Sequence record: PV292302.1
Reading direction: 5' to 3' (one strand)
DNA length: 64,000 nucleotides
Origin: Escherichia phage Jgk1
Position 1 is the first letter of the stretch; every line of letters begins with the position of its first letter. Both the position numbers and the translations under genes were made by a program. Positions 3,526-8,837 of the stretch are shown here, one piece after another. Below the pieces are notes generated by a model that was not told the DNA's origin, made no database searches, and worked only from the letters and a program-made list of their open reading frames with translations.

Positions 3526-3834
3526 TTGTTAAATGAAATCATTTGTATCCCTCAGCATAAAGCACATATTGCAGAAAGGAATATTCGTATTCATCTGCCT
3601 ATGCCTTTATGTAATCCATTTCAGCGTAATGAGAGATTGAGCCAGGAGGATGTATCAGTAGCTTATGAAGCTTATCTGAAGAACAGACTCATTAATGGTG
3701 ACAAGCTCATCACTGCTGAGATGGAGAAGATAGCTAGCCTTGTCATGGACAAGACTGGTAAACCTGTTGGCCTTATTGGTGATGAACCAGAAGTCAACGT
3801 AATCCGTAGTTTAATATTAGAGGCAATCGGATAA
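3526..3834 (+). CDS. Hypothetical protein (102 aa), probable TTG start
   Basis: Track ORF begins at a TTG codon; GGAGA ~11 nt upstream; stop overlaps next ATG. Confidence 0.4.
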   Translation: MLNEIICIPQHKAHIAERNIRIHLPMPLCNPFQRNERLSQEDVSVAYEAYLKNRLINGDKLITAEMEKIASLVMDKTGKPVGLIGDEPEVNVIRSLILEAIG

Positions 3835-4342: not shown

Positions 4343-4653
4343 CTACTATCGTAGTTCTGCATGACACCACATTCAAAGATGTGGATAAGATGATGAATAA
4401 CATAGACTATGTTGCTCAGCATTCTAAAGCATTCAATGGAGAGTTTACTCTCTATTGTGAACCAGAGTCACCATTGGCTCCTATACTTGAGGCTTCCGGT
4501 CTTCCGTTCAGTACTACTGACTTTCCAAAGGAACCTGACTTCGTTATCTCATCCATCTACGACTTACATGATGGTTCTAAAGCCAGTGAACTGGCAATGA
4601 ACCAGTGGAAATCTCGTCGTCCTGTATGGCCTTTTCAGGTGCTGAAACCATGA
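4339..4653 (+). CDS. Hypothetical protein (104 aa)
   Basis: ORF; start overlaps upstream stop. Confidence 0.45.
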   Translation: MTTIVVLHDTTFKDVDKMMNNIDYVAQHSKAFNGEFTLYCEPESPLAPILEASGLPFSTTDFPKEPDFVISSIYDLHDGSKASELAMNQWKSRRPVWPFQVLKP

Positions 4654-4892
4654 CCTATGAAGAATATTATGTATTTAAAAAGGGAGATGATTTTATAGCT
4701 ATGCCTGATGATTACAGAGATTGGCATACAACTTCTGTATTAAGTGAAGCATTTTCCGTACCTAACCTCGAAGAGGTTAATAGAGTAATGAACGGAGTAA
4801 TGCTAACTAGAGGGCTAGCTTACAAAATAGACGCATTAGAAGGAACTTCTGTATGCAAAGTCGTTACATCCATTGAGGTACTGAAACCATGA
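4650..4892 (+). CDS. Hypothetical protein (80 aa)
   Basis: Internal ATG of track ORF 4605-4892 overlapping upstream stop (ATGA). Confidence 0.4.
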   Translation: MTYEEYYVFKKGDDFIAMPDDYRDWHTTSVLSEAFSVPNLEEVNRVMNGVMLTRGLAYKIDALEGTSVCKVVTSIEVLKP

Positions 4893-5272
4893 AGATAAGC
4901 TCATTAGGTGATAACACCAATGCCTTATACGGTGTAGCTGCATGTCCAATTATTATTGTCAATAAACATCACAGTAAATCTGGTGAGTATATTGGGCGTG
5001 GCTCACCATTAGGTAATCCATTCATCATTGGTACGCATGGCGACCGTGAACAGGTAATTGCTAAATATGCTATGTGGTTACAAGAGCAGATTGATAAAAA
5101 CAATCCTGTTGTACTAAAAGAACTTAATCGTCTGGGTAATAAAGCCATTGACGAGAAAGGGTTAGCCTTACAGTGTTTCTGTTATCCGAAACCATGTCAT
5201 GGTGAGGTTATTAAAGAGAAGCTCGTAAAGGCTATGTACAAATACTTTGAGGAGCATCCAAATGGCATTTGA
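4889..5272 (+). CDS. Hypothetical protein (127 aa) with GRGSPLGNPF motif
   Basis: ORF; motif read in translation; family recalled only tentatively (DUF4326-like). Confidence 0.45.
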   Translation: MKISSLGDNTNALYGVAACPIIIVNKHHSKSGEYIGRGSPLGNPFIIGTHGDREQVIAKYAMWLQEQIDKNNPVVLKELNRLGNKAIDEKGLALQCFCYPKPCHGEVIKEKLVKAMYKYFEEHPNGI

Positions 5273-5594
5273 AGACATTAATCACCCATCACTATGGGGC
5301 ATTCAGCATATACCATCAGGTAAGTTGCTGAGGCAGTTTAATCATGGTTATGGTCATACACAGCTAGATGTGGAAGATGACCCACTGCACCCAAGAGTAC
5401 AACGTGGGATTGTATTATCACCTCGCCTATTTACTAGTGAAGACACAGCTAAACGTGCACTCATTCAGTGGCTACAAGGAGTTCATCGTAATGAATGGGA
5501 AGATGGACTGTATGTATATAACCCAGAAGTTCCTCGTATTAAAGAGGAGTTCAAAGTAATTCCTGTTTATTTGTATACCGACCAGAAGGAGTAA
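5262..5594 (+). CDS. Hypothetical protein (110 aa)
   Basis: Internal ATG of track ORF 5247-5594. Confidence 0.4.
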   Translation: MAFEDINHPSLWGIQHIPSGKLLRQFNHGYGHTQLDVEDDPLHPRVQRGIVLSPRLFTSEDTAKRALIQWLQGVHRNEWEDGLYVYNPEVPRIKEEFKVIPVYLYTDQKE

Positions 5595-5598
5595 CTGT

Positions 5599-5784
5599 AT
5601 GTCTAAGCAATGTAAGTGTGGTAAAGGCTACGTATCACTTTGGGATAACAAATGTGGTAAATGCCGAACCAAGAAGGAACAGAAAGACCATGAATATGCT
5701 CTTGACTGTGTATCCGAATGTCAGTGTGAGTCACAAGCTGATGCTATTAACTTTTACAAAGAAGTAAGGAATCATTGCAAATGA
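5599..5784 (+). CDS. Small Cys-rich protein (61 aa), zinc-ribbon-like
   Basis: CKCGK...CGKC...C..C.C pattern. Confidence 0.45.
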   Translation: MSKQCKCGKGYVSLWDNKCGKCRTKKEQKDHEYALDCVSECQCESQADAINFYKEVRNHCK

Positions 5785-6164
5785 AAGAAATCTTCGTATT
5801 CGGTTCTAACCTGGCTGGTATACATGGTGCTGGTGCAGCTAAGACTGCATATAAGAAACATGGTGCTCGTTGGGGAATGGGTGTAGGCCATTATGGTTGC
5901 AGCTATGCAATCCCAACCAAAGACCAGAACATCAAGACAATGAAACGTAGCGATATTGAGACATTCGTTGCAGGCTTTATTCTATATGCTGCTTCTCATC
6001 CAGAGTGGGACTTTAAAGTAACACGTATTGGATGTGATTTAGCTGGCTTCACTGATGCAGAAATGGCAGTACTGTTTGTTACAGCTACTGGAAACGTACT
6101 ATTCGATGAGGCATGGAAACCATACCTGGGTGATACCTATAACTATTGGGGAACATTCTCATGA
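5775..6164 (+). CDS. Hypothetical protein (129 aa) with Gly-rich FGSNLAGIHGAGAA motif, Rossmann-like
   Basis: ORF; Gly-rich loop near N-terminus; family unresolved. Confidence 0.45.
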   Translation: MQMKEIFVFGSNLAGIHGAGAAKTAYKKHGARWGMGVGHYGCSYAIPTKDQNIKTMKRSDIETFVAGFILYAASHPEWDFKVTRIGCDLAGFTDAEMAVLFVTATGNVLFDEAWKPYLGDTYNYWGTFS

Positions 6165-6291: not shown

Positions 6292-7110
6292 ATGTACTCA
6301 TCTATTGAACATCAGAAGCAACTGGAAACTCTGTTTAACAAGAATCAACTAATTCCTCGTATGAGGAAAGAGTTCGAAGACTCCAAAGACGTAGACTTTA
6401 AGGCATTTGCCGAGTATCTGGACATTGATTATAAGTTGCTCATTGATGCAATGGTTCAGATGGCACTACATAAACGTGCCGACCTGCCTACCTTAGTTGG
6501 CTCTCTTATGAGCCACAGTCATGACGCTCAGTATATTGCTGATTGTCTGTTGAAAATGGCAGAAAACGACTGCTTCAACTTTGACCCAAGCATTGACAAG
6601 TTCATCGTGCTGTATGGCATCAGTGAAGATGTACAGCTTGAGTTAGAAGCATTCCAGTATCCACTGCCTATCGTCAGTAAACCTAAGCCTGTACGGGATA
6701 ACCGTGACACAGGCTATTGGAATACTAAAGGCAGCATCATCCTCAAGAAGAATCACCATGAAATGGATGTCTGTCTTGACCACATCAACCGTATGAACAG
6801 TCAGCGACTGTGCATTAACTGGAAAGTAGCTAAGTTCGTTAAGAACTCCTGGGCTAACCTGGATAAACCTAAAGAAGGTGAAACCCGTCAGGACTTCGAG
6901 AAACGTGTACGTGCATTCGAAAAGTATGACCGTACAGCTAAAGACGTAATGGAGCTAGTGACTAAAGAAGGTAATAACTTCTCACTAGCTCATAAGTATG
7001 ACAAGCGTGGGCGTACTTACTCACAGGGTTATCACATCAACTATCAGGGAACCAGTTGGAACAAGGCTGTAATAGAGTTCGCTGATAAGGAGTTAGTAAA
7101 CGATGCGTAA
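6292..7110 (+). CDS. Phage RNA polymerase II small subunit (N4 gp15-like)
   Basis: 272 aa, directly upstream of the T7-like RNAP catalytic subunit gene; N4 gene order 15-16-17. Confidence 0.5.
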   Translation: MYSSIEHQKQLETLFNKNQLIPRMRKEFEDSKDVDFKAFAEYLDIDYKLLIDAMVQMALHKRADLPTLVGSLMSHSHDAQYIADCLLKMAENDCFNFDPSIDKFIVLYGISEDVQLELEAFQYPLPIVSKPKPVRDNRDTGYWNTKGSIILKKNHHEMDVCLDHINRMNSQRLCINWKVAKFVKNSWANLDKPKEGETRQDFEKRVRAFEKYDRTAKDVMELVTKEGNNFSLAHKYDKRGRTYSQGYHINYQGTSWNKAVIEFADKELVNDA

Positions 7111-7390
7111 AAAAGACTTTAAAGCCATCGCTCAATCCAAAGGTGGAATGGGCATACTGGCATTAGGAGAAGATGGTACAGTATTGTATAAGGCTTACGA
7201 CGTAATGACTGGTAAACCAGTCACTGTATGCCTCTTCTACGATGTGGATGCCTACTGGTCAATGCAGAATGCTATAGCAAACTTCAGTAATATCATGAAA
7301 GACCGTGACCAGAAGCCGGATTTAACTCCAGCTGACAAAGACTTTCAGTCAATCCTCAATGACCTGAAGAAACCAGGCAAACTTCATTAA
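7103..7390 (+). CDS. Hypothetical protein (95 aa)
   Basis: ORF. Confidence 0.4.
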   Translation: MRKKDFKAIAQSKGGMGILALGEDGTVLYKAYDVMTGKPVTVCLFYDVDAYWSMQNAIANFSNIMKDRDQKPDLTPADKDFQSILNDLKKPGKLH

Positions 7391-7406: not shown

Positions 7407-7574
7407 ATGACCGATAAGTATGAGCTATGGACTAAATGGCCAGGAGAAGACTGGAAGTTTTTCAAGTCTAGTAATGACATTGAGTATCTAAGAACTACGG
7501 CTAAACGTGTAACCAAAAGCTTAGGAATAAGCTGTAAAATTCATGCAGTAAAACGCTTTGAACAACCATTGTAA
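7407..7574 (+). CDS. Small hypothetical protein (55 aa)
   Basis: ATG with AAAGGTG RBS, TAA at 7572; below track cutoff. Confidence 0.3.
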   Translation: MTDKYELWTKWPGEDWKFFKSSNDIEYLRTTAKRVTKSLGISCKIHAVKRFEQPL

Positions 7575-7619: not shown

Positions 7620-8837
7620 ATGCAAACTTTTACCGCTAAACAATATCTGGCTATCGACATTGCTAACAACTATGGTCTGGACAAGAAGACCTGGGACGAA
7701 CGTTTGGCATGGTTCGAAGAGAACAAAGGTAATTTGCTCAACTTAGTTGAATCAGCAGATGAACCGGCAATGTTCTATGCAGGTGTTGTAGCCTATCACG
7801 ACATGCTGGATGGTAAGCCTATCGGTTATACCGTAGCACTGGATGCAACGTCATCTGGTCTGCAATTACTGGCATGTCTCACTGGTGACCGTAAAGCAGC
7901 AGAACTGTGCAACGTAGTTAACTATATGGGTGATAACGGTAAGCCATTACGTCGTGATGCCTATACCGTTATCTATCACACTATGCTGGACATCGTAGGT
8001 CAGTCTTCCCGTGTTAAGCGAGATGACTGTAAGCAGGCTGTAATGACTGCATTCTACGGCTCTGAGGCTAAGCCTAAAGAAGTGTTCGGTGAAGGTATCC
8101 TGTTACGTACATTTGAGAACGTAATGGATACTTCTGCACCAGGTCCGTGGGCATTAAACAAGTTCCTGCTTCAGTGTGGTAACCCGGATGCTATGTCATA
8201 CCTCTGGGTACTGCCTGATAACTTCCATTGTCAGATTAAGGTAATGGTTCCTGAAGTTCAAACCGTGAACTTCCTGAACAAACCTTATGACATCACTCGT
8301 ATGGTTCAGGGTACTGAAGAGAAGACTCGTATGCTCTCCGCTAATACTACCCACTCCATTGATGGAATGGTGGTACGTGAGATGCTGCGTCGTTGTAACT
8401 ACGATGCTGACCTGATTACTTACGTTAAGCAGTTATGCTACGGGGTGCAGGAAAGCAATGTAGCTCTGGAAGAGAACTTTGACATGGTAATGCAGTTATG
8501 GAACCACTATGAGAAGAGTGGGTTCCTGTCCATGTACATCTGTAACTTCCTGGATGCAGGTTCTATCCATCTGGTAGACCGTCAGGTAATCCTGGACATG
8601 CTGGATACGCTTCCTAAGAAGCCATTCAAAGTGATGACCGTACATGACTGCTTCCGTTGCCATCCTAACTATGGCAATGACCTGCGTCGTCAGTACAACC
8701 AGATTCTGTCTGACATTGCCAAGAGTGACCTGCTGGGCTTCATCCTGAGCCAGGTACTAGGACAAGAGTTTTCTGCTGGTAAACTGGATAATGACCTATG
8801 GAAGGACATTCTGGAGACTGACTATGCGCTCAGCTAA
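7620..8837 (+). CDS. Phage RNA polymerase II large/catalytic subunit (T7-like single-subunit RNAP fold, N4 gp16-like)
   Basis: 405 aa; C-terminal MTVHDCFRCHP resembles the T7 RNAP HDSFG catalytic motif. Confidence 0.65.
   Translation: MQTFTAKQYLAIDIANNYGLDKKTWDERLAWFEENKGNLLNLVESADEPAMFYAGVVAYHDMLDGKPIGYTVALDATSSGLQLLACLTGDRKAAELCNVVNYMGDNGKPLRRDAYTVIYHTMLDIVGQSSRVKRDDCKQAVMTAFYGSEAKPKEVFGEGILLRTFENVMDTSAPGPWALNKFLLQCGNPDAMSYLWVLPDNFHCQIKVMVPEVQTVNFLNKPYDITRMVQGTEEKTRMLSANTTHSIDGMVVREMLRRCNYDADLITYVKQLCYGVQESNVALEENFDMVMQLWNHYEKSGFLSMYICNFLDAGSIHLVDRQVILDMLDTLPKKPFKVMTVHDCFRCHPNYGNDLRRQYNQILSDIAKSDLLGFILSQVLGQEFSAGKLDNDLWKDILETDYALS

Follow-up and report, generated by a model that had tools for sequence, protein, structure and literature searches.

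A predicted compact macrodomain protein and a DUF4326 protein, candidates for a role in ADP-ribose-based counter-defence, in the putative early region of the N4-like Escherichia phage Jgk1

The window analysed here, a stretch of 64,000 nucleotides from Escherichia phage Jgk1 (sequence record PV292302.1), is that of an N4-like phage (Schitoviridae, G7C/Moo19-type), and the present work deals with two of its genes, open reading frame (ORF) A and ORF B, the orthologues of genes gp12 and gp14 of phage N4, respectively (Table 1). On the basis of a structural model and of sequence comparisons, ORF B is predicted to be a compact macrodomain of 127 amino acids whose catalytic pair, Asn and Lys, is that of the DarG/TARG1 class, and ORF A is a member of the DUF4326 family. 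The attachment of ADP-ribose to phage DNA, RNA and proteins, as well as alarm signals derived from nicotinamide adenine dinucleotide (NAD), are major bacterial defences, and we moderately favour the interpretation that the ORF B macrodomain and the DUF4326 protein ORF A, as two separate early genes, would take part in an ADP-ribose-based counter-defence. Within this interpretation, the erasure of host-made DarT2-type adducts on phage nucleic acid would be the single most likely role, which we hold with somewhat less than even confidence. To our knowledge, only AdfN (a NADAR protein) and AdfM (a macrodomain protein) have been experimentally shown to be phage erasers. If ORF B indeed erases ADP-ribose marks, a conserved early function would be explained for a phage family that is used in therapy, N4 gp14 would be given a function, and DUF4326 would become open to biochemical study. 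The results represent a well-supported annotation, built on sequences and models, together with a proposed mechanism, and not a new kind of system.

Conservation of ORF A and ORF B

Judging from their sequences, ORF A and ORF B are real conserved genes, since their profile scores lie far beyond chance and the motifs quoted for them in the initial annotation of this DNA coincide with invariant columns of the corresponding families. ORF A matches the Pfam profile DUF4326 (PF14216) with 78.4 bits (E 6.7e-22), the gathering cut-off being 25 bits, over profile positions 5-82 of 82, and it matches phrog_464 with an E of 1.4e-36. Its motif GRGSPLGNPF, residues 36-45 (nucleotides 4994-5023), coincides with the invariant DUF4326 columns R37, N43, P44 and F45, and the DUF4326-type assignment that had been made tentatively from this motif is borne out by the Pfam match. 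ORF B, in turn, matches NCBIfam NF049995 (A1S_2505_Nterm; [quoted passage not shown]) with 148.8 bits (E 5.9e-44; curated cut-off, 45 bits) over profile positions 1-109 of 109, and phrog_2072 with an E of 8.6e-58.

The two ORFs described in the initial annotation, at 4889-5272 and 5775-6164, are present with the motifs that were quoted, the start of the second one being moved here to 5781. The ORF program had listed ORF B at 5775..6164 on the + strand, with a TTG start and 129 amino acids, and in this longer version FGSNLAGIHGAGAA corresponds to residues 9-22 (nucleotides 5799-5840) and GMGVGHYGCSYAIP to residues 34-47 (nucleotides 5874-5915). Because all ORF B homologues start with MKEIFVFGSN, and because the ATG at 5781 forms an ATGA overlap with the stop codon of the upstream gene, this ATG is taken as the true start. 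The quoted motifs overlie the invariant columns F7, S9, N10, G13, H15, G18, A19, A20, G36, G39, P45, T46 and K47. ORF B has no match at all in Pfam, and none of the five proteins encoded locally has a match in PADLOC; a large family thus escapes standard annotation. The exact protein sequences of ORF A and ORF B were not found by an exact-sequence look-up in a large gene collection.

Predicted fold and catalytic residues of ORF B

An AlphaFold2 model of ORF B, constructed with 79 sequences, had a predicted local distance difference test score (pLDDT) of 96 and a predicted template modelling score (pTM) of 0.91. A Foldseek comparison of this model with the PDB rendered 29 top matches that were all macrodomains except two SARS-unique-domain chains. 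The best match was DarTG (7omu), and the top matches included BT1257 (2fg1, 2afc), TARG1 (4j5q, 4j5s, 2l8r), SCO6735 (5e3b) and DarG (5m3i, 5m3e), followed by alphavirus (nsP3) and coronavirus macrodomains. The macrodomain matches had a probability of ~1.0 and template modelling scores (TMq) of 0.55-0.64, with a sequence identity of 14-17% for TARG1 and BT1257, and Rossmann-like matches were limited to pyridoxal kinases (probability 0.28-0.41, TMq 0.40-0.44). From its glycine-rich loop, ORF B had been proposed in the initial annotation to be Rossmann-like and nucleotide-binding; the predicted glycine-rich loops that would bind a nucleotide sugar stand, and the fold is, according to the model, that of a macrodomain. 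The identity of ORF B as a Rossmann or SLOG/LOG-type domain, an idea that the case of the anti-Avs protein ORF83 had suggested, was rejected because its structural neighbours are macrodomains.

Profile comparisons are consistent with the model. In an hhalign alignment of the ORF B family with human TARG1 (probability 81%, E 1.2e-5; the TARG1 sequence used is in accordance with the PDB alignment over its C-terminal two-thirds), Lys47 falls on the catalytic Lys84, and G84-C85-D86-L87-A88 of ORF B on G121-C122-G123-L124-D125. A search of PDB sequences with the family profile gave non-significant but consistent alignments, with AIPTKD on LITKK of TARG1 and RIGCGLAG on RIGCGLD of TARG1 and RIGCGLAG of BT1257; searches of the PDB with the single sequences of ORF A and ORF B rendered chance matches only. 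The protein gp104 of phage PhiKZ is AdfM, a DarG2-like phage macrodomain that removes DarT2 marks from DNA and in whose active site N23 and K78 correspond to N22 and K80 of DarG2 (PMC13309987). When the ORF B family was aligned with AdfM by hhalign (E 5.5e-4), Asn10 was placed on Asn23 and PTK47D on PTK78D. Both residues are widely conserved in the family, Asn10 in 149 and Lys47 in 132 of 150 diverse representatives (clusters at 50% identity). The fold model, the hhalign alignments to TARG1 and AdfM and the conservation of Asn10 and Lys47 are the reasons for predicting a macrodomain of the DarG/TARG1 class. The two glycine-rich stretches, FGSN10LAGIHGAGAA and RIGC-D86-LAG, would be equivalent to the pair of ADP-ribose-binding loops that macrodomains have.

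TARG1/OARD1 (C6orf130) and BT1257 (4j5q, 2l8r, 2fg1), of the Poa1p/TARG1-like class, have the same three-layer macrodomain fold that the model gives for ORF B, and share with its family the diphosphate loop (RIGCGLAG/RIGCGLD); the catalytic Lys of TARG1 is found in the same strand-end context (LITK84, as compared with IPTK47 in ORF B). In contrast to them, ORF B is ~20% shorter, is missed by the Pfam Macro profile, and has Ala in place of Asp125 of TARG1 and Asp at the site of Gly123 of TARG1. Like AdfM, ORF B is a stand-alone phage macrodomain, whereas it differs from DarG2 in consisting of a single domain, without the DarT-binding domain, and in having cellular homologues that lack a DarT neighbour. 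Membership of ORF B in the DarG/AdfM family proper is ruled out by a test with the PADLOC DarG profile.

ORF A, a member of the DUF4326 family

ORF A is a full-length Pfam match to the DUF4326/T4 NrdA.1 family, in which N25, R37, N43, L82, C96, C98, P100, C103 and H104 do not vary among 74 aligned sequences; all nine are found in ORF A, the last five making up the motif C96-x-C98-x-P100-x-x-C103-H104. With respect to the rest of the DUF4326/DUF488 families, the DUF4326 proteins of N4 type have an extra N-terminal helix and a GNKAIDE insertion. The AlphaFold2 model of ORF A (pLDDT 92.8) is a small alpha/beta unit in which the GRGSPLGNPF loop follows the first strand and strand 92-96 is connected with helix 105-122 by a C98-Y-P-K-P-C103-H104 loop. 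The geometry of the Cys/His loop in this model is typical of cysteine-based active sites and would be equally compatible with a zinc site. A search of PDB sequences with the DUF4326 profile rendered ribosomal-protein noise and nothing relevant. Among predicted viral structures (Foldseek, BFVD), the ORF A model matched DUF4326 proteins and their SLOG and NADAR fusions, and more weakly DUF488; the fusions include a DUF2493 (SLOG) protein of Pseudomonas phage Zuri and a protein labelled "NADAR with protein tyrosine phosphatase". [quoted passage not shown]

A second, degenerate DUF4326 copy is found at 3526-3834. Its match to Pfam DUF4326 is below the cut-off (E 0.002), its match to phrog_464 has an E of 6e-12, and its hhalign alignment to the DUF4326 profile (E 4.8e-4) covers 42 columns only. 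Since both Arg37 and the entire C-x-C-x-P-x-x-C-H motif are missing from it in the alignment, this paralogue is probably not catalytic.

DUF4326 proteins bear in public records labels such as "ribonucleotide reductase NrdA-like", "DNA repair protein" and "antirepressor"; the first two, found in PHROGs and GenBank, are misleading labels that arise because DUF4326 is the family of T4 nrdA.1.

Distribution and domain fusions

The ORF B family comprises 5072 cluster representatives (50% identity, E up to 0.001) and is found in 458 phage genome records. Homologues are present in most of the N4-like phages sampled, including the type phage N4, with hosts that belong to Escherichia, Klebsiella, Pseudomonas, Erwinia, Achromobacter, Rhizobium, Ruegeria and others, and also in jumbo phages, in "uncultured phage cr116_1" and in Bacteroides phage DAC16. 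In the N4-like loci that were inspected in detail, the ORF B homologue lies just upstream of an RNA polymerase subunit gene, and RNA polymerase II (RNAPII) genes are also present in about half of 80 viral loci with an ORF B homologue.

Sixty long members of the ORF B family, among them the metagenomic representatives P0418, P0444, P0499 and P0502, were scanned for fused domains. The partners identified were SLOG YAcAr (6 cases), NADAR (4), DprA-like SLOG (4) and WYL_2 (2), and, in one case each, an Acb2/Tad1 hairpin, DUF488-N3a, a DenV-type pyrimidine-dimer glycosylase (Pyr_excise) and CsrA. Examples of the resulting architectures are macro-NADAR (P0444), macro-SLOG(YAcAr) (P0418), glycosylase-macro (P0499) and NADAR-macro-DUF488-N3a (P0502). 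The last domain of P0502 aligns with the DUF4326 profile (hhalign probability 93%, E 3e-7) over a region that covers the CxCxP..CH motif, so that a macrodomain of ORF B type and a domain resembling ORF A are combined in a single polypeptide. Of the evidence presented here, this sequence comparison argues most strongly that both families act in one pathway; because P0502 joins NADAR, macro and DUF4326-like domains, both probably belong to one ADP-ribose network. The N4-like Pseudomonas phage Ebordelon encodes in its early region a DUF4326-SLOG (DprA-like) fusion (locus L003, 2432-3379), annotated as "DprA-like DNA recombination-mediator protein", and in addition a separate ORF B homologue. An identical 315-amino acid DUF4326-SLOG architecture is found in Pseudomonas phage Zuri, where it is annotated as "Transposase".

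In public records, ORF B homologues have been labelled "hypothetical", "ADP-ribosyltransferase", "ADP-ribosylglycohydrolase", "tail spike protein" or "major head protein". Earlier annotations of homologues thus already include "ADP-ribosylglycohydrolase", and also "macro domain Poa1p family"; for DUF4326, a general prediction has likewise been published. What is new here is the link to N4 gp12-gp14, the mapping of the catalytic residues, the NADAR-macro-DUF488 fusion, the failed membership in DarG and the G86D allele dealt with below.

Possible functions of ORF B and ORF A

In the mechanism that we propose, the two glycine-rich loops of ORF B would hold the diphosphate and the distal ribose of ADP-ribose, and Asn10 and Lys47 would cleave the link between C1'' of this ribose and the group attached to it; ORF B might in this way erase ADP-ribose put on phage nucleic acid by host defences, for example DarT2 marks on single-stranded DNA. 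In the same ADP-ribose network, ORF A could trim a phosphate linked to ribose, or some breakdown product related to it; a phosphatase-like step on such a phosphate has been conjectured in the literature. The erasure of DarT2-type marks is favoured because the closest relatives, DarG2, AdfM and TARG1, act on ADP-ribosylated macromolecules, and because NADAR is a recurrent fusion partner of the family and another partner is a DNA glycosylase. TARG1 reportedly gives protection against toxic DNA ADP-ribosylation, as the title of a paper has it. AdfN, the phage NADAR protein, erases DarT1 marks from DNA (PMC11825919), and the role proposed for ORF B, that of an orphan phage ADP-ribosyl hydrolase, would be analogous, the folds of both proteins being unrelated. 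Neither the early region of Jgk1 nor the annotation of the related phage Moo19 showed a NADAR gene, and no phage ADP-ribosyltransferase, the action of which ORF B could undo, is annotated in Moo19, the Jgk1 window itself having been only partly scanned in this respect. The supposition in the initial annotation that these early genes modify signalling nucleotides or nucleic acids, with ADP-ribose and NAD among the possible substrates, agrees with the synteny with N4, the domain fusions and published predictions (PMC9503650, PMC7824862), the activity itself being predicted.

A number of observations weigh against a role of ORF B and ORF A in the erasure of ADP-ribose. The Foldseek E of the ORF B macrodomain matches is only ~3e-3, and the probability of the hhalign alignment between its family and AdfM is only 30%. 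No match of ORF B to Pfam Macro (PF01661) was found even at E up to 10, and none to the PADLOC DarG model, whereas AdfM matches them at 4.9e-7 and 4.4e-39, respectively. The second catalytic residue of TARG1, Asp125, corresponds in ORF B to Ala88, which is invariant in the close family, and Asp86 aligns with Gly123 of TARG1, the site of the binding-dead substitution G123E. In the nine cellular loci with ORF B homologues that were recovered there is no ADP-ribosyltransferase or DarT neighbour, the neighbours being housekeeping genes (for example TrkA, RsmB, a Mur-ligase-family gene and an alanine-racemase-like gene), and for this reason the ORF B family is not a toxin-antitoxin component. With regard to ORF A, the Foldseek search of the PDB with its model rendered no credible neighbour (best E 1.3, TM 0.15-0.3). 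The nucleotide-processing folds put forward in the initial annotation for both proteins are therefore matched, among solved structures, by the macrodomain neighbours of ORF B and by nothing for ORF A. The search also rendered no phosphatase or rhodanese neighbour, so that the published rhodanese-phosphatase assignment of DUF4326 is not reproduced, and the chemistry of this family is a conjecture because it has no neighbour of solved structure. In T4-like phages, the DUF4326 gene, that of NrdA.1, is located between td and nrdA, among genes of nucleotide metabolism. Finally, of the 80 viral loci only 12, all of them N4-like, have a DUF4326 gene at no more than 10 kb from their ORF B homologue, and close relatives such as that of locus L010 lack one near their ORF B homologue. 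ORF A and ORF B are therefore only partly linked, and that they form an obligate pair is ruled out by the same count.

The main rival to adduct erasure is the degradation of soluble signals. It can be the case that the target of ORF B, together with ORF A, is not a macromolecular adduct but a soluble NAD-derived molecule, either a signal or a toxic metabolite; the Thoeris signals gcADPR and His-ADPR, ADP-ribose-1''-phosphate and O-acetyl-ADP-ribose would be candidates, and their removal would blunt signalling immunity early in infection. The fusions of the ORF B family to SLOG, NADAR and the Acb2/Tad1 hairpin fit such a target, as does the fact that other annotators have filed homologues under the Poa1p-like macro family. 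In a survey by the Aravind group (PMC9503650) it is argued that ADP-ribose derivatives of low molecular weight are the main targets of phage Macro, NADAR and SLOG domains, DUF4326 trimming phosphates linked to ribose, and N4-like phages are rich in anti-signalling genes (bioRxiv 10.64898/2026.06.04.730250). The anti-signalling hotspot of N4-like phages is situated elsewhere, however, between the primase and the virion RNA polymerase genes, and DarG and TARG1, the nearest structural and catalytic matches of ORF B, act on macromolecular adducts, to which the DNA glycosylase found as one fusion partner can be added. A soluble target is rather unlikely in our estimation. The Jgk1 locus was also considered as the published hotspot itself, and rejected, since it is a different locus.

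A further alternative concerns the particular allele carried by Jgk1. Position 86 of ORF B is occupied by Gly in 77 of 79 aligned close relatives and in 144 of a diverse set of 150 representatives, none of which has Asp, the family consensus around it being RIGCGLAG, and Gly is also present in the nearest relative, P0001 (98% identity). In TARG1, the G123E substitution abolished ADP-ribose binding and catalysis (PMC5928194), and because Asp86 is located at the equivalent site the Jgk1 protein is perhaps impaired or altered, so that G86D may weaken or change its binding of ADP-ribose. ORF B of Jgk1 would then be a disabled or repurposed allele in which Asp86 blocks the ADP-ribose pocket, either a decaying remnant or a protein with a role that does not require ADP-ribose hydrolysis. 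The loss of a near-invariant Gly and the effect of G123E speak for this possibility, as do changes in four G7C-like relatives (P0020, P0024, P0027 and P0029; 70-79% identical to ORF B), in which Lys47 is replaced by Leu (IPTLD) and GCGL by GCGI and in three of which Gly16 of the first loop is replaced by Leu, Val or Ile, P0029 retaining Gly16. Their sequences suggest that in this sub-lineage hydrolase activity has repeatedly been lost or has shifted to binding only. In Jgk1, on the other hand, the reading frame is intact and all other invariant residues of ORF B are present, Asp is smaller than Glu, and the Gly-to-Asp change is found also in two distant homologues, P0048 (64% identity) and P0119 (58%), which suggests that it is tolerated or selected; the single-base change GGT to GAT could, moreover, be an artefact of sequencing or passage. 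A disabled allele seems to us unlikely, and G86D concerns the Jgk1 genome only, the predictions made for the family being unaffected by it.

It could also be that ORF A is unconnected with ADP-ribose and, as a protein of T4 NrdA.1 type, functions instead in nucleotide or DNA metabolism, or that its three Cys and one His residues form no more than a structural zinc site of a protein that binds nucleic acid, its nearness to ORF B being incidental. The position of the T4-like gene between td and nrdA, the missing phosphatase or rhodanese neighbour and the published fusions of DUF4326 to replication and restriction-modification components (PMC7824862) are in agreement with this, and so are the numbers, since DUF4326 is found in 1287 phage records, as compared with 458 for ORF B, and the two occur together in the 12 loci only. 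It is improbable nonetheless, in view of the independent published fusions to SLOG, NADAR and Macro (PMC7824862, PMC9503650), those with SLOG and NADAR being found here too, of the homologous domain that P0502 joins to NADAR and an ORF B-type macrodomain, and of the gp12-gp13-gp14 order that N4 and Jgk1 have in common. More doubtful than any of these is an extension of the counter-defence interpretation in which gp12-gp13-gp14 would constitute a dedicated early "ADP-ribose eraser" module, in which a minimal DarG/TARG1-like macrodomain, retained beside the RNAPII genes in N4-like phages with a wide variety of hosts, shields their unusually exposed single-stranded DNA templates from ADP-ribosylation specific for single-stranded DNA, with DUF4326, sometimes fused to the zinc ribbon, carrying out a new, second chemical step, and with variants such as G86D and K47L acting as adaptive switches between hydrolase and binder.

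Genomic context

The left part of the window has ~80% DNA identity to Shigella virus Moo19 (Schitoviridae, Enquatrovirinae) and to G7C-like Escherichia and Klebsiella phages. The order gp12-gp13-gp14 of N4 is retained in Jgk1, directly 5' of the RNAPII genes gp15/gp16 in both phages, with identities to the N4 proteins of 86% for ORF A (gp12), 57% for the product of the intervening gene (gp13) and 75% for ORF B (gp14). RNAPII of N4 belongs, together with the genes on its left side, to the early genes, which are transcribed by the injected virion polymerase, and it is because of this synteny that we infer early expression of ORF A and ORF B.

Table 1. Features of the Jgk1 window referred to in the text
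Feature	Coordinates	Strand	Remarks
Degenerate DUF4326 paralogue	3526..3834	+	102 amino acids; PLxNPF loop kept; Moo19 homologue is gp17
ORF A, DUF4326 (T4 NrdA.1 family), N4 gp12 orthologue	4889..5272	+	127 amino acids, ATG start
Extra gene with respect to N4, phrog_23096	5247-5594, probable start 5262	+	Between the gp12 and gp13 homologues
Zinc-ribbon-like protein, N4 gp13 orthologue	5599..5784	+	61 amino acids; between ORF A and ORF B
ORF B, predicted compact TARG1/DarG-class macrodomain, N4 gp14 orthologue	5781..6164	+	127 amino acids from ATG
Codon GAT, Asp86 of ORF B	6036..6038	+	Replaces the near-invariant Gly of the second predicted ADP-ribose-binding loop
N4-type RNAPII subunit genes (two)	6292-7110 and 7620-8837		Downstream of ORF A and ORF B
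Two small ORFs	7103-7390 and 7407-7574	+	95 and 55 amino acids; separate the RNAPII subunit genes

ATGA start/stop overlaps are found between ORF A and the upstream ORF 4605-4892 (at 4889-4892) and between the gp13 homologue and ORF B (at 5781-5784), and indicate translational coupling along the early operon. The gp13 homologue matches phrog_13804 (E 2.1e-31) and has a four-Cys pattern, C-K-C-x11-C-x2-C, in the sequence CKCGKGYVSLWDNKCGKCR. A CKCxKGYxSxWDNxCxxCR module of gp13 type constitutes the N-terminus of a DUF4326 protein of Erwinia phage Fifi450 (locus L004, 2381-2815), which points to a functional tie between gp13 and gp12.

Jgk1 differs from N4 by an additional ORF (about 5262-5594), by the degenerate second copy of DUF4326 (3526-3834) and by G86D. 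The additional ORF has no match in Pfam, NCBIfam or PADLOC, and its homologues (phrog_23096) are found in some relatives only. In N4, gp15 is next to gp16 and a short gap is all that separates them, whereas in Jgk1 two small ORFs intervene.

At the left end of the window there is an exact 401-bp direct repeat (positions 1-401 and 501-901, with a spacing of 500 bp), beyond which the two copies diverge and which doubles the start of an ORF (144-428 and 644-967). Since N4-like genomes have repeats of ~400 bp, it probably represents a direct terminal repeat that was captured twice, or an artefact of the assembly junction.

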